Positions 31,482-62,112 of a DNA stretch of 64,000 nt are shown here, piece after piece (within the stretch, counting starts at the first letter, position 1; the number at the start of each line of letters is the position of its first letter). The translations under genes were made by a program, and so were the position numbers. The notes beneath the pieces are model-generated. The model made no database searches. It was not told the origin of the DNA and worked only from the letters and a program-made list of their open reading frames with translations. Origin of the DNA: a phage; sequence record PX441839.1; one strand, written 5' to 3'.

Positions 31482-34400
31482 ATGGAATATCAAGATAAGG
31501 TCGTTGAGGTTCTGGTAACGGCTCCTGTAGCTGACGCAGGTCAGACTGCTGGTTCCGGTGGCGGAAACTTCACTGGCATTGAAACCCTCAACACGCCTTC
31601 CACATCCCTTGTTGGTAAAGGCACCCCTTCTTCACCCCTTCAATCAAACGTCAATATCTCTCGTCGTACAGGTAACAGATTAACTGTAGTTAACGATCAG
31701 AATGAGACGGGTCTTTTCGTAGGCTCTGCTGAAACAAAGATTTCAAGCAAAGCTGGAAATACGATCAAGGAAATCACCCGTACAGAAGCAGAAAACGCAG
31801 GGGACCCTTCCTTAGAGGGAATTTACTCTGCCCCGGTTAGTGAGTCTGTATCTTCCCCTAACAAGACTGTCAAGATTGCACAAGTTGCATCTGACAATTC
31901 AAAGTCTACCATTGAAGTTGCTGTTTCTGCAGCAGATAACAATGCCCTCGTTGTTGGTGAAGACGGTCTGAGTGTACCAGTGTCTAAGTCTCTTGACAAC
32001 ACACTGGAAATTCGGCAAGGTGCTCTGTATGTGCGCCCACAAGAGACCCAGATCTCTCAAGATCCTGCAAACAAGATTGAACTGAAACCTGACGGTATCT
32101 TTGTAGAAACCGTAAAAGGTGATAAGGGAGATACAGGTGAGCAAGGACCAGCAGGTCCAGAAGGTCCTCAGGGTCCAGCAGGTAAAGACGGCGCACCTGG
32201 TGTAGAAGGTCCTCGTGGACCAGAAGGTGAAAGAGGTCCGGCTGGAATCGGCATCAATGTTATTGCTCAGTTGGCAACTGTTGATCAGCTTCCTCCTGTA
32301 GAGAACTACGAAGATGGTGACACCTTCGTTATTGATGGTCACTTCTGGACTAAAACTACAGTAGGTGATACATCCCAGTGGACTGATGTCGGATCTTTCA
32401 TTGGACCAGAAGGTCTGGATGCCTATGAGGTTGCTGTACAAGATGGTTTCGAAGGTACAGTTGATGAATGGTTGGCAAGCCTTCGTGGTGCTGACGGTAT
32501 CGGTCTGCAACTCTTAGGTTCATTCAGAAGCGTTGATGACCTCCCAATGGAAGATAACAAGGCAGGTGATGCCTATATCGTCCAAGAGCAGATGTGGGTT
32601 TGGGACACTGTTCAGTGGGCACCTGTTGGACAGGTTGGCCCAGAAGGTAAGTCAGCGTATCAAGTTTGGTTGGCTAATGGTAACACTGGTTCGCAGAATG
32701 ACTTCTTGGCATCCTTAAAAGGAGAGAAAGGAGACAAGGGCGATAAAGGTGATAAAGGAGACAAGGGTGAAGACGGTAAGAACGCCAACGCCGTAAACAT
32801 TCTTGGATCTGTTGAAACCGAGGCTGACCTTCCTGACGGTGCTGATGCCGGGGACGCATACCTGATCGGAGAGAACGTATGGGTATCCGATGGCGCAGGT
32901 AAATGGACAGACCTTGGCTCTTTCCGTGGTCCAGAAGGTCCTCGTGGAGTACCTGGTGAAAAGGGTGACAAGGGCGATACTGGTGCTCAAGGTGGTACAG
33001 GTAAGAGCAACTATGACCTCGCTGTAGAGGAAGGATTCACTGGAACTGTTGCCGAATATTTGGAATCCATCAAGGGTGAAAAAGGAGACCAAGGTCCACA
33101 AGGTCCTCGTGGACTGACCGGACCTAAAGGCGACAAAGGTGACACTGGAACAGGACTTACAGTTAAAGGATCTGTTGCATCTGTAGAAGACCTACCTGCT
33201 GCTGGAAATGCAGAAGGTGATGCCTATTTCGTTGGTACTCATATGTATGTTTTCCTGTCTGGTGCATGGGAAGATGTCGGTGAGTTGAAAGGTGAAAAAG
33301 GCGATAAGGGTGACACAGGACCTAAGGGAGATACAGGCCCACAGGGTCCAGCGGGTGAGCGTGGTCCTCAGGGTGTTCAAGGTCTTAAAGGCGACACTGG
33401 CCCAGTGGGTCCTCAAGGACCAGCAGGTAGGGACGGTGTAGACGGTACAAACGGAACCGATGGTAAAGACGGAACAGGTCTGATGCCAAAAGGCACCGTT
33501 GCAACTCAGGCGGATCTCCCTGCAACTGGTAATTCTATCGGTGATTTTTATACGGTAGAAGAGGAAGGAAGGGGTTACGCTTGGAACGGAACAGAGTGGA
33601 TCTACTCCGGTGTGGCTCAGGGTCCTCAAGGACCAGCGGGTGAAAACGGTGCTGATGGTGCTACAGGTCCTCAAGGCCCACAGGGTCCTAAGGGTGACAA
33701 AGGAGACATGGGGCAAGGTATTCTGCCGAAGGGAACTGTCCCGACTCAGGCTGACCTTCCTACCGAAAACAATGAAATTGGTGACTTCTATGTTGCTGAT
33801 GACACTGGAATCGGTTACGCTTGGAATGGCACAACCTTCATTAACTCTGGGATTTCTCGTGGTAAAGACGGGGAACAAGGTCCACAGGGTGAACAGGGTA
33901 TTCAAGGTGAGCAGGGTCCTGCTGGTCCTAAGGGAGATACGGGGGATACTGGTCCTCAAGGCCCACAGGGGGATATTGGCCCAGGTGTAGAAATCATCGG
34001 TAAGCTGAATGATCCTTCTGAACTTCCGGCAACCGGAGAACTTGGTCAAGGATACCTGATCGAGGGTGACTTCTGGGGTTGGACAGGTCAAGCTTACGAG
34101 AACTTGGGACAGATTCGCGGACCTGCGGGTCCGGTTGGTCCACAAGGGAACCCAGGTCCTGTAGGTGAGCAGGGTGTTCGTGGTGAGAAGGGTGATCAAG
34201 GCTCCTTATGGATCGTCTTTGGTAGAGAACCTACTCCTGCTGATGGTCGCGTAGGTGACTACTTCATGAACTCTTCCACTCTGGAGTTCTTCCGTAAGAC
34301 TTCTGCAACCAACTGGGCATCTCTTGGTTACATGGGTGGCGGTAACGTCTACGATGCACCTAAAGATGGGAAGCAGTACACCCGTTTAGATGGTGATTGG

Positions 34401-34769
34401 GAAGTTCTTTCTGTTACTGAGGCACCTGAGGACGGTGGGTACTACATCCGTACCAATGGTCAATGGCAAAAATTAGATCGTTACGACCTCCGTGTTGTTG
34501 AAACTACAGGTGCTATGGACGTATCTGTGAGTAACTGCTTCAAGGTTGACGGGACGGCTAATAAAACCATGTCTCTCACAGGACTCCCTCCTGACAGGGC
34601 GATGACTATTGTTATTCGCTTCTTGGGTAAAGGGGCGCAGTTGACTTGGCCTTCAAACCTTGCTTGGTCAAATGGTACACCTCCTGCTCTTGGCACAACC
34701 CGTACAGTGGTAACTCTGTTCTGGGACGGTGAATTCCTGACTGGGACTCAGGCGATGACTGTTGACTAA
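31482..34769 (+). CDS. collagen-like repeat fibre protein (1095 aa)
   Basis: multiple Gly-X-Y runs (e.g. [43 protein letters not shown]) alternating with a repeated module of the form LP..N..GD.Y.V....W.W.G..W..G. Confidence 0.7.
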   Translation: MEYQDKVVEVLVTAPVADAGQTAGSGGGNFTGIETLNTPSTSLVGKGTPSSPLQSNVNISRRTGNRLTVVNDQNETGLFVGSAETKISSKAGNTIKEITRTEAENAGDPSLEGIYSAPVSESVSSPNKTVKIAQVASDNSKSTIEVAVSAADNNALVVGEDGLSVPVSKSLDNTLEIRQGALYVRPQETQISQDPANKIELKPDGIFVETVKGDKGDTGEQGPAGPEGPQGPAGKDGAPGVEGPRGPEGERGPAGIGINVIAQLATVDQLPPVENYEDGDTFVIDGHFWTKTTVGDTSQWTDVGSFIGPEGLDAYEVAVQDGFEGTVDEWLASLRGADGIGLQLLGSFRSVDDLPMEDNKAGDAYIVQEQMWVWDTVQWAPVGQVGPEGKSAYQVWLANGNTGSQNDFLASLKGEKGDKGDKGDKGDKGEDGKNANAVNILGSVETEADLPDGADAGDAYLIGENVWVSDGAGKWTDLGSFRGPEGPRGVPGEKGDKGDTGAQGGTGKSNYDLAVEEGFTGTVAEYLESIKGEKGDQGPQGPRGLTGPKGDKGDTGTGLTVKGSVASVEDLPAAGNAEGDAYFVGTHMYVFLSGAWEDVGELKGEKGDKGDTGPKGDTGPQGPAGERGPQGVQGLKGDTGPVGPQGPAGRDGVDGTNGTDGKDGTGLMPKGTVATQADLPATGNSIGDFYTVEEEGRGYAWNGTEWIYSGVAQGPQGPAGENGADGATGPQGPQGPKGDKGDMGQGILPKGTVPTQADLPTENNEIGDFYVADDTGIGYAWNGTTFINSGISRGKDGEQGPQGEQGIQGEQGPAGPKGDTGDTGPQGPQGDIGPGVEIIGKLNDPSELPATGELGQGYLIEGDFWGWTGQAYENLGQIRGPAGPVGPQGNPGPVGEQGVRGEKGDQGSLWIVFGREPTPADGRVGDYFMNSSTLEFFRKTSATNWASLGYMGGGNVYDAPKDGKQYTRLDGDWEVLSVTEAPEDGGYYIRTNGQWQKLDRYDLRVVETTGAMDVSVSNCFKVDGTANKTMSLTGLPPDRAMTIVIRFLGKGAQLTWPSNLAWSNGTPPALGTTRTVVTLFWDGEFLTGTQAMTVD

Positions 34770-34810: not shown

Positions 34811-35461
34811 ATGGCAGTAGATCCAAACAGCAAGATTGAAGCTTGGACACCCATGATCAGAATTTCTGACATGAAATATCCAGTTTACCTGCGTGACTAT
34901 CTTGAGGAGTACAAAAACGTCAGTATCGGGTCTTTCGTGTGGGAAAGCGGGATGCGTGAGGTTGGATACTTTAAAGTCCACGATGTAGAAATCCCTATTG
35001 GGGATGTAGTCGTAGAAGGTGAACCAGCCTATAACGAGGAAGATGAACTTTGGTATAAGACTTGGATTGTCAGGGATTTCACCGAAGAGGAGATTGCTCA
35101 CAATCTCTATATGGCAAAAGAGGACGCTAAGTCTCAAGCTTATCGAATTTTTACCAATGATCAATCTTCCGGTGTTCTGGTAGATGGAGATCAGTTTAAT
35201 GTTGAGCCTCGTGAGATTACCAACTTAAGAGGTACACTCGAACTTGCCAATTTAGCAGGTGATGAGGAGAAGTTTCTTGTTCGCAAGGCAGACTTTTCAA
35301 TTCTGGAGCTTACTGCAAAAGAGACTGTTGAAAAGGTCACAAAAATAATTCTAGAGCAAGGAAAGTTACACCAAGCCCTTCTGAGCCATGTAAAAGAAAT
35401 CATGGATGCGGAAGACAGTGATTTAATCCCACCAACCCCACACACTTTCTTAGGAGAATAA
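34811..35461 (+). CDS. hypothetical protein (216 aa), possible fibre accessory protein
   Basis: ORF track; position after fibre gene. Confidence 0.45.
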   Translation: MAVDPNSKIEAWTPMIRISDMKYPVYLRDYLEEYKNVSIGSFVWESGMREVGYFKVHDVEIPIGDVVVEGEPAYNEEDELWYKTWIVRDFTEEEIAHNLYMAKEDAKSQAYRIFTNDQSSGVLVDGDQFNVEPREITNLRGTLELANLAGDEEKFLVRKADFSILELTAKETVEKVTKIILEQGKLHQALLSHVKEIMDAEDSDLIPPTPHTFLGE

Positions 35462-35462
35462 T

Positions 35463-35813
35463 ATGTCTGCAATCGGCGGAACATCTTTAGGTCTGATTAC
35501 TGGCTATGCGATCATGGATCAGTCAACTGGTGAAACAAAAACCATCTCCGAGTTACTCAGTGGTGCTGGGGGCGGCACACCGGGTCCTGTTGGACCTAAG
35601 GGAGATCAGGGTGAAGTTGGACCTCAAGGACCTAAGGGCGACACAGGCCCTGCTGGACCGCAGGGTCCTCAAGGGGAGCAGGGTGTAGGTATTGCACATG
35701 CCAATACAAAAATTGATGGACGTAATGTAACCATTATGTTTACGATGACGGATAACACAGTGAAAGAAGTTGTTTTCACAATTCCTGAACCAACCCCGAC
35801 CCCCTCTGCCTGA
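35463..35813 (+). CDS. small collagen-like protein (116 aa)
   Basis: [34 protein letters not shown]; N-terminus paralogous to next gene. Confidence 0.5.
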   Translation: MSAIGGTSLGLITGYAIMDQSTGETKTISELLSGAGGGTPGPVGPKGDQGEVGPQGPKGDTGPAGPQGPQGEQGVGIAHANTKIDGRNVTIMFTMTDNTVKEVVFTIPEPTPTPSA

Positions 35814-35825
35814 TATATTTACACC

Positions 35826-35848
35826 ACCGCCCTTCGGGGCGGTTTTCT
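35826..35848 (+). terminator. rho-independent terminator
   Basis: ACCGCCC-TTCG-GGGCGGT then TTTTCTT. Confidence 0.6.
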
Positions 35849-35870
35849 TGTATCTGCTTAAGGAGAAATT

Positions 35871-36545
35871 ATGGCAAAGCTTAAGGGTATTACTGGAAAT
35901 CAAAATGGGGTATTCTATGGTTATGCCCTCTATGATTTAAAATCTGAGAAGCTTATTCCTTTTAATGAGATTGGGGTAGGAGGCGGAGAAGCAGAGCAAG
36001 GTCCGGTAGGTCCTGTTGGACCACAAGGACCTAAAGGTGACAAAGGTGATCCTGGACCTCAAGGTTTGAGAGGTCCTCAAGGTCCTCAGGGACCTAAAGG
36101 TGATCCTGGCGCAAAGGGTGATGAAGGGATCGATGGTGCTGTTGGACCACAAGGTCCAAAAGGGGATAGGGGAGAACCAGGACCAGAAGGACCACAAGGT
36201 CCAATCGGACCCCGTGGACCAGTGGGACCTGCGGGAGCGACGGGTCTTAACTGGAAGGGACAGTATTCTGACTCTGTTACTTATCTTCTTGACGACGCTG
36301 TCGCGTTTAATGGTGCAACCTACTTTTCTGTCAAGGAGTCAACAGGGATAAGCCCAGCGGAAGATACAGTTCAAGAATACTGGGCTGTAATGGCAGCTTC
36401 TGGGGTAAAGGGAGACCAAGGTCCACAAGGTCCCGTGGGACCAGTGGGTCCTCAAGGTGAAAGAGGTGAACAGGGTATTCAAGGACCGAGAGGTCCAGTT
36501 GGAGAGACAGGACCTGCTGGACCTCGCGGACCGGAAGGGATTTAG
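35871..36545 (+). CDS. collagen-like protein ending at an in-frame amber codon (224 aa)
   Basis: long Gly-X-Y runs; TAG at 36543-36545 sits in the Y position of a GXY triplet (...GPEGI*GPQGPQG...). Confidence 0.55.
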
Positions 36546-36860
36546 GGACCACAGGGACCTCAAGGTATTCAGGGTCCTCAAGGTAAAAAGGGAGTTAATT
36601 GGAGGGGGAACTGGTTTAGAAACACCACATACACGAAAGATGACGCTGTTTATTTTGAAGGTACGAGTTGGATTTGCGATATAGACCATTCCTCGTCAGA
36701 TGACAATAAACCGGGAAGCCCTCAAAGATTTAAGTGGGCAGTTTTCGCCAAGAAAGGGGAAGACGGTCCTCAAGGACCTGCGGGAGAGCCAAAGAAAATC
36801 AACCATGTACTTCGGAATTGCTCCTGGAAATGGGGTGACATCATTCCTTGGACTTCCTAA
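36546..36860 (+). other. possible amber-readthrough extension of collagen-like gene (about 104 codons)
   Basis: same frame stays open to TAA at 36858-36860 and encodes a second copy of the upstream module (GVNWRGNWFRNTTYTKDDAVYFEG...FKWAVFAKKGEDGPQGPAG versus [24 protein letters not shown]...[20 protein letters not shown]). Confidence 0.4.
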
Positions 36861-37203
36861 TTCACCTACCCTTATGTTGGCGATACGGGGATTGGCGGAT
36901 AAGAATATTTCCGTAGGGCTTGTCTCTGGCGGTGCAGACAAGAGAGTTTCTTACAGATTTAGCTCTTTGTATGGTGGAGGTGGTGTTGATGGTCAATTTA
37001 ACCAATCTTACAACTTAACAAATGGTCTTCCTTTTATGGTTGACACACTCTATTACATGGACTCTCAAGAGAACCAAGTGATACTTATAAGTGATCTTGA
37101 AACTGGACAGGTATGGAGAGCGGATATGTGGGGAATAAACAGAAGATATTTTGTCGAGGTCTTTGAATTGACCGATGGCCCACAAGAGTACAAAATATAT
37201 TGA
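36700..37203 (+). CDS. hypothetical protein (167 aa), +1 frame relative to collagen frame
   Basis: ORF track; no clear RBS at 36700; C-terminal part looks globular; may be a separate gene or joined to the collagen frame by recoding or an indel. Confidence 0.35.
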   Translation: MTINREALKDLSGQFSPRKGKTVLKDLRESQRKSTMYFGIAPGNGVTSFLGLPNSPTLMLAIRGLADKNISVGLVSGGADKRVSYRFSSLYGGGGVDGQFNQSYNLTNGLPFMVDTLYYMDSQENQVILISDLETGQVWRADMWGINRRYFVEVFELTDGPQEYKIY

Positions 37204-37208
37204 TAACT

Positions 37209-37236
37209 AGCCACCTTCGGGTGGCTTTATTTTTTA
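37209..37236 (+). terminator. rho-independent terminator
   Basis: AGCCACC-TTCG-GGTGGCT then TTTATTTTTT. Confidence 0.65.
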
Positions 37237-37289: not shown

Positions 37290-37820
37290 ATGACCAACGA
37301 AGAACTGATTGAACTGGTCAGGGCTTTCCTCGGCAACGCTGATTCAGAAACCCTGCCTGATAACATAATCCTTCTGTTTTACAATAAGTGGGGGTTGTCT
37401 ATGGATCTAGACAATCACCCAGAAAGATTTCCAAACGTGCTATACAATACGGTTGTAGACTGCGTAAGATGGTTAATTGCTCAAGAGGTTTCAAGTGGTG
37501 CATCCTCAATAACTGAGCGATTTGAAAAGATAGGTGATGAAACTATCTCTGTGAAGGGAGGTTCATCCTGGAAATCGTGGCAAGACTTCCTTGAATGGCT
37601 TCTTCTGAACCCTGATTACATAGATCCCTCATTGGCTATGAACTCCTCGCTGGTGATCATAGGTGGTGTAAGAAAGGACAGATTCATGTCTGTTAAGAAC
37701 AACCCCAATTCTTATAATGGGTTTATGGAACAGGGGGTTTTCCCTACTCCAGCGATACCGAAGAAGGCTAAATGGCCCGGAGGCGGTGGAGGTTATCGCA
37801 GTAGCCCGTGGCTTCGATAA
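37290..37820 (+). CDS. hypothetical structural protein (176 aa)
   Basis: ORF track; AGGAGGT RBS-like sequence upstream. Confidence 0.45.
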   Translation: MTNEELIELVRAFLGNADSETLPDNIILLFYNKWGLSMDLDNHPERFPNVLYNTVVDCVRWLIAQEVSSGASSITERFEKIGDETISVKGGSSWKSWQDFLEWLLLNPDYIDPSLAMNSSLVIIGGVRKDRFMSVKNNPNSYNGFMEQGVFPTPAIPKKAKWPGGGGGYRSSPWLR

Positions 37821-61728: not shown

Positions 61729-62112
61729 TTATTTTCTCCCCTTCTTACGGTGATAAACTCCACGTTTGGACAGAGGAATTTCCTCTGCATCTCTTCCATC
61801 AACACCATCTTCACCAGGTTCACCTTGAGGACCCATTGGACCTGCTGGTCCCATTGGCCCCATAGGTCCTACAGGTCCAGTGACAACACGAATGTCTTTA
61901 GGTTTGTACAGAGAATAACCCAAGCATCCAAACCAACCGATAAGTGTAATTACGCTCGGAGGCAAAAGGAAGAAGATAACAGTAAAGACAGAGATCATCC
62001 ACTTATTCCTGTGATCCTTCTTCCATGCGATAATTATTGGGGAAAAACTAATTGCCAATAAAATTAACAGAAAAACAAGACCGAGAGTGATGGCAGCTTC
62101 TGCAATTATCAT
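61729..62112 (-). CDS. membrane protein with short collagen-like segment
   Basis: two hydrophobic segments followed by TGPVGPMGPMGPAGPMGPQGEPGEDGVDG. Confidence 0.4.
   Translation of the reverse strand: MIIAEAAITLGLVFLLILLAISFSPIIIAWKKDHRNKWMISVFTVIFFLLPPSVITLIGWFGCLGYSLYKPKDIRVVTGPVGPMGPMGPAGPMGPQGEPGEDGVDGRDAEEIPLSKRGVYHRKKGRK

Follow-up and report, generated by a model that had tools for sequence, protein, structure and literature searches.

Analyzing a 64,000-nucleotide (nt) stretch of phage DNA (sequence record PX441839.1; hereafter the window), we found that the region between positions 35463 and 37203 carries two genes for collagen-like proteins, a short one (open reading frame 1, ORF1) and a longer one (ORF2), a single fiber gene that falls into three pieces through an amber codon and a one-base shift of frame. 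We read this locus, with a probability of roughly 0.6, as a hypervariable cassette of capsid-anchored trimeric collagen fibers, in which the longer fiber has recently been inactivated or truncated by two real lesions. The initial annotation had placed two small collagen-like genes here, at 35463..35813 and 35871..36545. Both ORFs and the peptides quoted for them are found as given, but the second gene does not end at 36545: the TAG there lies within a Gly-X-Y run and coding continues to 37203. The true unit is 35871..37203, and the end coordinate 36545 halves it.

The window is part of a large Vequintavirinae myophage genome of the SSBI34-like type. Salmonella phage SSBI34 (Vequintavirinae, 141 kb) is its sole close relative in the phage collection, and the structural proteins flanking the locus (large fiber, adaptor, Neck1, head completion protein, tail terminator, and sheath) show 93-98% amino acid (aa) identity between the two. 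Remoter relatives are the Certrevirus phages CR3, CR8, CR9, PBES 02, phiTE, CB7, and POP15.

A fiber gene apparently interrupted twice

The rebuilt gene and its parts, in which CBM stands for carbohydrate-binding module, are the following.

35871..37203, plus strand: whole interrupted fiber gene, conceptual product 443 aa
35871..36545, plus strand: ORF2 fragment, 224 aa, with anchor (aa 1-43), 28 Gly-X-Y triplets (36000-36251), first CBM5/12-like module (~36243-36401), and 15 complete triplets
36543..36545, plus strand: in-frame amber TAG as residue Y of triplet 16 in the second collagen run (GPE GI* GPQ)
36546..36798, plus strand: continuation of the ORF2 frame, with 6 triplets, second CBM5/12-like module (~36591-36755), and 4 triplets ending GEPKK
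36795..36798, plus strand: A4 run, site of the frame change (36789-36807 reads cca aag aaa a tca acc atg)
36799..37203, plus strand: C-terminal tip in frame +1, 134 aa plus the TGA stop at 37201-37203

The ORF2 fragment, preceded by the Shine-Dalgarno (SD) sequence AAGGAG 7 nt 5' of its ATG, is the only piece certain to be translated. Across the amber codon the Gly-X-Y register is kept (GPEGI*GPQGPQ). The ORF2 frame stays open for 104 codons past the TAG and frame +1 for 172 codons; by simple arithmetic, open runs of 104 and 133 codons would arise by chance with probabilities of ~0.007 and ~0.002. Codon-usage log-odds favor frame 0 up to ~36800 and frame +1 beyond. When one A is deleted from the A4 run, the sequence becomes ...GEPKKSTMYFGIAP... 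and GEPKK joins STMYFGIAPGNG; the repaired junction GEPKK/STMYFGIAP matches the collagen-to-tip junction of intact homologues, GTPGKTSQKLFGLVP. The 443-aa product then has the order anchor, collagen (28 triplets), CBM5/12-like module, collagen (22), CBM5/12-like module, collagen (4), and beta-sandwich tip. The gene belongs to the family of phrog_5073 (E=7e-74), and the CR3 gp011-type motif KGITGxQNGVYYGYALYD..IPF, collagen, and CBM-like module are all present; the single uninterrupted ORF with a globular tip that also marks the CR3 gp011 type is not found in the window, where the TAG and the frame change intervene.

Homologues of the tip support the same unit. Eight homologues (E 3e-26 to 2e-16) were found when the frame +1 piece was searched exhaustively with HMMER, and the match always lies at the extreme C-terminus. 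P0002, P0006, and P0007 are single ORFs that open with the ORF2-type N-terminus (KGITG..GVYYGYALYD..IPF); P0006 and P0007 proceed through collagen, a CBM-like module, and collagen to the window-type tip, and P0002 passes from collagen directly to it. All three align with the rebuilt 443-aa protein from one end to the other, and P0006 lies in a contig (L021) whose gene order is that of the window. The tip is unlikely to be translated on its own from the ATG at 36805, which has no GGAG closer than 16 nt on its 5' side and whose Met pairs with a K, R, or V inside the homologues; this codon is thus probably internal and not a start. Together, these comparisons indicate that 35871..37203 is one gene in three pieces.

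The orthologue is one intact ORF in 13 relatives, four of them named phages (CR3, PBES 02, P7_Pc, and POP15, the last with a TTG start) and nine environmental contigs (L008/L017, L009, L016, L018, L019, L020, L021, L022, and L024). The idea that POP15 is a third damaged copy with a lost start was rejected, as its TTG start has a good SD sequence and was missed by annotators. SSBI34 is the single exception among the orthologues. Its gene has one in-frame TAG, 38 codons downstream of the window's TAG position, in the context FF*GTSW, at a codon that is GAA in the window; conversely, SSBI34 reads GAG (Glu) at the site of the window's TAG. The SSBI34 gene has no frame change and continues past its TAG, in frame, to a tip unrelated to that of the window. 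This tip type is fused within an intact 410-aa ORF in L024 and presumably resembles the C-terminal domain of prophage tail fibers (gp53-like). The SSBI34 fiber gene (L001 7166-8455; MZ520832 56372-57661) was deposited as two "hypothetical proteins," QYC52519 and QYC52520, with the in-frame TAG at L001 7952 and the second coding sequence opening at an internal Met of the tip domain. The SSBI34 TAG is probably real, because that genome was assembled from ~500x Illumina data (PMC8879037).

Past the TAG, the sequence bears no trace of decay. Between the window and SSBI34, the ratio of nonsynonymous to synonymous substitution rates (dN/dS) is 0.070 over 224 codons 5' of the TAG and 0.069 over 71 alignable codons 3' of it, and 17 of 17 invariant tip-family positions are kept in the window. 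The equal dN/dS and the kept tip residues therefore make the lesions young compared with the divergence of the alleles, unless the part beyond them continues to be translated or the lesions themselves are spurious. When 66 SSBI34 ORFs were compared with the window, the frame differed in only one other genuine coding ORF. That ORF is HNH-endonuclease-like (20451-20966, plus strand), with the difference at about 20715; a second flagged difference falls in a spurious minus-strand ORF. We infer that the two lesions in the fiber gene are real mutations and not sequencing errors.

Collagen, carbohydrate-binding modules, and tip

ORF2 scores 77.9 bits against Pfam Collagen (PF01391; cut-off 27.2), with runs of 28 and 22 triplets in the rebuilt gene, and ORF1 scores 24 bits, just below the 27.2 gathering cut-off. 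The Gly-X-Y runs described in the initial annotation are thus present, with 13 triplets in ORF1 and 28 and then 15 complete triplets in the ORF2 fragment. Through these runs, both products would be expected to form a trimeric triple helix.

The initial annotation did not mention the two CBM5/12-like modules or the distal beta-sandwich tip. The second CBM copy (aa 247-280) reaches a borderline 26.4 bits against PF02839 CBM_5_12, whose cut-off is 26.2. Eight of the nine family copies match this model at E<=1 (best 1.6e-5), the sole nonmatching copy being the window's own first one, and a profile built on the copies picks out chitin-binding domains in 3wx7 (E=1.2e-4) and in chitinase A1, 1ed7 (E=1.5e-3). 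These matches suggest that the modules bind glycans. The tip is confidently predicted to fold as a 9-strand beta-sandwich (predicted local distance difference test 87, predicted template modeling score 0.82), for which fold comparisons gave generic Ig-like matches only. The window tip had no match in a word-indexed protein search, PHROGs, Pfam, or tblastn against phages, its homologues having come from the exhaustive HMMER search alone, and BLASTP against the CR3 or L008 tips was not significant.

A short collagen protein with a Pagoda-type anchor

The gene immediately upstream encodes the shorter protein.

35463..35813, plus strand: ORF1, 116 aa, with anchor motif (aa 1-37), 13 Gly-X-Y triplets, and C-terminal knob of ~40 aa

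ORF1 has a strong SD sequence, TAGGAG, 6 nt 5' of its ATG, and its 13 triplets form an unbroken run at nt 35574-35690. The protein matches the CR3 gp010 family (phrog_21621) from end to end, with aa 1-108 on profile positions 1-101 of 103 (E=3.3e-32), and it has the same anchor, short collagen, and C-terminal knob. It also matches phrog_20253, the phiTE_217/CB7_12 family, through aa 1-39 only (E=2.6e-12), and it contains the motif of that family, MAAIGGxSLGxxTGYxIMDQxTGExKTISELFxGG. The N-terminus of phiTE_217, MAAIGGTSLGLVTGYAIMDQETGQVKTISELFEGG, is 79% identical to ORF1 over 34 aa. The globular body of pTE217 (aa 40-164) is not present in ORF1, in which the phrog_20253 match ends at residue 39; beyond the anchor, collagen and a knob stand in its place.

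Proteins with this anchor are virion components in two relatives. CB7_12 was found in purified CB7 virions by tandem mass spectrometry (MS), with eight unique peptides and 47% coverage (PMC7344957), and the CB7 homologues of the 216-aa protein encoded upstream of ORF1 (CB7_11) and of the downstream adaptor were likewise identified in virions (PMC7344957, Table 4). In phiTE, pTE217 is the fifth most abundant virion protein by MS and has been provisionally assigned to the unmodeled "Pagoda" density seen by cryo-electron microscopy (cryo-EM) at the capsid hexamer center, whose contact region "lacks symmetry and order" (PMC11972413). The checks that the initial annotation proposed, virion proteomics and cryo-EM, have therefore been answered in part and in relatives only, by the MS data on CB7_12 and the provisional Pagoda assignment of pTE217. 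Its suggestion of fibrous decoration proteins gains indirect support for ORF1, for which such a role is plausible because the anchor is common to pTE217 and CB7_12; the second protein of the suggestion is the 5' fragment of a 443-residue fiber gene.

The two collagen proteins also resemble each other at their N-termini, as had been proposed. Whole-protein BLASTP of ORF1 against ORF2 gives E=2e-12; with collagen removed, ORF1 residues 1-38 and ORF2 residues 1-41 still align co-linearly (E=8e-5), and hhalign of profiles of the two families (11 members each) aligns 35 co-linear columns (E=2.5e-5, probability 75%). The two N-termini are thus probably paralogous.

A variable cassette in the head module

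The following features frame the two genes.

34811..35461, plus strand: 216-aa structural protein (phrog_4998), directly 5' of ORF1
35826..35843, plus strand: terminator-like GC hairpin and T run between ORF1 and ORF2
37209..37226, plus strand: terminator-like hairpin that closes the ORF2 transcription unit
37290..37820, plus strand: head-to-tail adaptor, 3' boundary of the variable locus

A terminator is annotated in P7_Pc at the site equivalent to 35826..35843, and a scan for terminator hairpins found none between 35843 and 37209, including none after the TAG. The window adaptor is 98% identical to that of SSBI34 and 64-72% identical to Certrevirus adaptors; its homologue in L021 carries PF26075 Phage_Adaptor_PhiTE.

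Between the 216-aa gene and the adaptor, the number of genes varies from none (L010) through one (phiTE, CB7, DU_PP_I, and F1M1E) and two (CR3, PBES 02, P7_Pc, POP15, SSBI34, the window, and L008-L021) to three (L022). Within the ORF1 family, the N-terminus is constant and followed by one of three distal types, namely, collagen plus knob, the Pagoda body, or a fiber-repeat-like segment (L009), and the collagen, nearly lacking in PBES 02 (82 aa), reaches about 20 triplets at its longest. The ORF2 family likewise has a constant N-terminus, with at least seven unrelated tip types. Nucleotide identity between the window and SSBI34 is 97-100% upstream of 32.5 kb and 59-85% across 34.84-36.76 kb, similarity is absent in the tip, and identity is 82-95% downstream. 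Exact look-ups of ORF1, the ORF2 fragment, the adaptor, and the major capsid protein gave no match, and peptide patterns from the 216-aa protein gave none in IMG/VR.

The 216-aa protein diverges along with ORF1 and ORF2, having 75% aa identity to SSBI34 compared with 93-98% for the flanks, and SSBI34 carries its nearest allele (about 75-76%). This divergence in step with the fiber genes is a hint of joint function, and the protein may serve the fibers as a partner or docking factor. Its family (phrog_4998) is conserved in over 100 phages, Erwinia jumbo phages among them, and the MS identification of CB7_11 in virions concerns this homologue (PMC7344957).

The Logan contigs L022 (5809-6594) and L023 (4354-5139) have, after a 426-aa ORF2 homologue, a 261-aa gene that overlaps it by TGATG and is absent from the window; it could encode a fiber chaperone or a second tip subunit.

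The initial annotation counted at least four collagen-like genes, and four are indeed present: 31482..34769, ORF1, ORF2, and 61729..62112 on the minus strand. The first, the large fiber (31482-34769, plus strand, 1095 aa), has eight separate Gly-X-Y runs alternating with repeated ~60-aa domains and, at aa 944-976, a weak Fibritin_C (foldon-like) match below the cut-off (E=0.0011). It is 97% identical to its SSBI34 counterpart as a protein, but nucleotide identity falls to 73-88% over 32.5-34.25 kb. The two collagen genes were said to stand downstream of this large fiber, which holds by position only, with the 216-aa gene in between. A homologue of the large fiber is present in CB7 virions (PMC7344957, Table 4), and the window protein may correspond to the third, unmodeled fiber of phiTE. 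The minus-strand gene, 61729-62112, lies in a block after the tail genes and encodes a protein of 127 aa in which two hydrophobic segments precede 10 Gly-X-Y triplets and a basic tail. The plus-strand structural module of the window extends from about 24.5 to 59.6 kb, and a tRNA cluster occupies 20.2-22.4 kb.

Recoding and tRNA checks

Genome-wide TAG recoding was excluded, since a six-frame scan for ORF pairs joined by one stop, made like the tRNA search over 64 kb of the window and 64 kb of SSBI34, returned only the fiber gene. In a rough ORF call of the window, stops are 48 TAA, 27 TGA, and 5 TAG, and four of the five TAGs end minus-strand ORFs and look like ordinary stops. ARAGORN and Rfam together give 11 tRNA or tRNA-like genes, and no suppressor tRNA (CUA anticodon) was found in the tRNA cluster of either phage. 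A position-conserved recoding site was not found either: the TAGs of the window and SSBI34 are 38 codons apart, and the 13 other orthologues have neither TAG nor frame change. With TAG positions that vary, a conserved stimulatory element is impossible.

One tRNA-like gene (20348-20426, plus strand; Rfam 38.4 bits) was missed by ARAGORN and has an identical copy in SSBI34 (L015 41427-41505). It has a D-arm of 4 nt, a long variable arm, and an anticodon loop, CUUCUAA, that reads UCU (Arg); it was considered as an amber suppressor and rejected on this anticodon, and it may be one of the "selenocysteine tRNAs" claimed in the SSBI34 paper. One tRNA slot holds tRNA-Gln(UUG) in the window (22205-22279) and an unrelated tRNA-Met(CAU) in SSBI34 (L015 43286-43360), next to a tRNA-Gly that is almost identical in both; the difference looks like a cassette-like tRNA replacement.

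Proposed reading of the locus and its alternatives

We propose that the locus is a hypervariable fiber cassette in the head module of an SSBI34-like myophage. ORF1 would encode a short trimeric fiber on the conserved anchor (~35 residues) of the phiTE "Pagoda"/CB7_12 proteins. The long-fiber gene would have been hit by a GAG-to-TAG nonsense change at 36543 and by one extra A at 36795-36798, and the only product expected in quantity would be a 224-aa tipless stub with its anchor, first collagen segment, first CBM, and part of the next collagen. Each protein would trimerize through its collagen runs, and the N-terminal motifs of ~35 residues would dock on one class of virion site, most likely the capsid hexamer centers. 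There, a collagen trimer on a six-fold site could adopt more than one rotational setting, and the disordered contact in the Pagoda density would therefore fit. Projecting outward, the proteins would act as adhesins, ORF1 by its knob and ORF2 by its CBM modules and swappable tip, binding surface glycans reversibly. The long fiber would be accessory, because it is absent from several relatives, and would have been lost recently.

Several points weigh against this reading. One or both lesions could be sequencing or assembly errors. For random decay, it is an odd coincidence that SSBI34 has its TAG at another Glu codon of the same gene, 38 codons away. The likeness of the ORF1 and ORF2 N-termini is short (35 columns, 29% identity), ORF1 and pTE217 have only their N-terminal 34-39 residues in common, and RefSeq and PHROG name the ORF2 family "tail fiber protein." The collagen-stalked form has so far been localized on no virion, and the assignment of the Pagoda density to pTE217 rests on MS abundance, the density itself not having been modeled (PMC11972413).

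Were both lesions sequencing or assembly artifacts, the intact ORF 35871..37203 would make the full 443-aa fiber. The ORF is intact in every Certrevirus-type relative, no decay at all is seen beyond the lesions, and the frame change lies in a homopolymer, a classic error site on some platforms; however, an A4 run is short for such an error, a G-to-T change that creates TAG is atypical of platform errors, and the rest of the window is almost without frame disruption relative to SSBI34. Moreover, the occurrence of a TAG in the same gene of SSBI34, sequenced at ~500x with Illumina (PMC8879037), argues that nonsense alleles do arise here, and we consider an artifact unlikely. A different view takes the lesions as real but useful, with a low level of readthrough at the amber codon, alone or combined with +1 slippage on AAA-A, placing a few long fibers among the short ones. 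Minority long forms on virions have parallels in the T7 capsid proteins 10A/10B and in Q-beta A1, and Fraser et al. reportedly noted in 2006 that programmed frameshifts often append C-terminal Ig-like domains to phage structural proteins. The window and SSBI34 alleles each have exactly one TAG, in the distal half and in place of a Glu codon before GG; the fiber-gene TAG is the only ORF-ending TAG among the plus-strand structural genes; dN/dS 3' of the TAG equals that 5' of it; and AAA-A would permit tRNA-Lys to re-pair in the +1 frame. Nevertheless, the two phages have their TAGs at different positions and the 13 other orthologues have none, so a conserved stimulatory structure is impossible at these sites; the searched 64 kb holds no suppressor tRNA, the codon after the A run (ATC) is not slow, and SSBI34 keeps its frame. 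Full-length protein would need two inefficient recoding events in a row, at a negligible yield, and this is the most improbable of the explanations considered. Hardly more credible is a broader version, in which SSBI34-like and Certrevirus phages would have a modular capsid adhesin system of one or two collagen-stalked trimers, bearing CBM5/12 modules and freely exchanged tips and docked at the Pagoda site by the common motif of ~35 residues. In the SSBI34 lineage, ambers recurring at different Glu codons would then hold the long fiber at low dosage or off, as a means of tuning through leaky termination or an on/off state reversible by point mutation, and not as decay.

The site of attachment can also be read differently. 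ORF1 and ORF2 may instead be baseplate, collar, or neck fibers, ORF2 being a host-range receptor-binding protein, an alternative that we regard as possible but doubtful. A collagen stalk with CBMs and an exchangeable tip is the classic build of a receptor-binding fiber, a tip of unrelated type occupies this position in SSBI34 and L024, the translationally coupled gene of L022 is fiber chaperone-like, and phiTE has a third baseplate-associated fiber that was left unmodeled (PMC11972413). On the other side, the genes lie in the head module, 5' of the adaptor and away from the baseplate genes; the short and long tail fibers of phiTE were modeled from other gene products, and pTE217 is too abundant for the 6-12 sites of a tail and suits a capsid with ~120 or more (PMC11972413). 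Moreover, when a phage protein with collagen is labeled "tail fiber," the label is usually automatic. We thus favor the capsid over the tail because of the gene position and the abundance of pTE217, and we suggest, from sequence comparison, that the collagen-stalked forms attach to the capsid.

Significance and comparison with known systems

The ORF1 and ORF2 families are already present, uncharacterized, in sequenced phages, including both CR3 proteins. What appears to be new here is the reconstruction of a broken fiber gene, the link that the shared N-terminus suggests between collagen-stalked forms and the Pagoda anchor, and the apparent recurrence of amber codons in the SSBI34 lineage. For annotation, the locus illustrates how one modular gene gets split, as in SSBI34, and labeled "tail fiber," when its N-terminus ties the family to the hexamer-center density of phiTE. 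If the capsid location is true, collagen-stalked homologues would explain the disordered density and offer natural variants for identifying it. For phage therapy and biocontrol, an accessory glycan-binding fiber that is broken in two related isolates would be a trait possibly lost on propagation, and the trait may bear on adsorption, plaque size, or host range. Overall, these results provide a useful correction and a testable lead and do not overturn current understanding.

A search of the cryo-EM literature on collagen-like fibers in Vequintavirinae gave nothing useful, and no counterpart of the window cassette was found in the phi92 structure. Among phages with a recognizable counterpart, phiTE pTE217 and CB7_12 share with ORF1 their near-identical first 34-39 residues and the gene slot between the 216-aa gene and the adaptor; unlike ORF1, with its 13 triplets and 40-aa knob, pTE217 is globular and noncollagenous over residues 40-164. 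CR3 gp010/gp011 and their counterparts in PBES 02, P7_Pc, and POP15 resemble the window in having two genes with the N-terminal motifs, collagen, a CBM5/12-like module, and a terminator between the genes. However, CR3 gp011 is an intact 456-aa protein with one CBM and an unrelated tip, whereas the window gene has two CBMs and two interruptions. SSBI34 (QYC52518, QYC52519, and QYC52520) has the same cassette, with the ORF2 homologue likewise cut by a TAG at a Glu codon, but its cassette proteins are only 73-78% identical, its TAG lies elsewhere, its frame is unchanged, and its tip is unrelated.

Outside these relatives, the T4 Hoc, T5 pb10, and phi29 gp8.5 head fibers are dispensable, project from capsomers, and are thought to be weak glycan or surface adhesins, much as proposed here. 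They have no sequence relation to the window proteins and are built from Ig-like domains or coiled coil, and the capsid site of the window proteins is an assumption of our model. The closest parallel for the loss of the long fiber would be the stf frameshift of laboratory lambda: Hendrix and Duda reportedly described in 1992 that the side tail fiber gene of lambda PaPa is split by a single-base frameshift relative to Ur-lambda. As in the window, an accessory fiber gene has acquired a frameshift, for lambda in a propagated isolate, and its downstream part still codes perfectly; in contrast, the lambda fiber is attached to the tail and is not collagen-like, and the window gene adds a nonsense codon to the change of frame.

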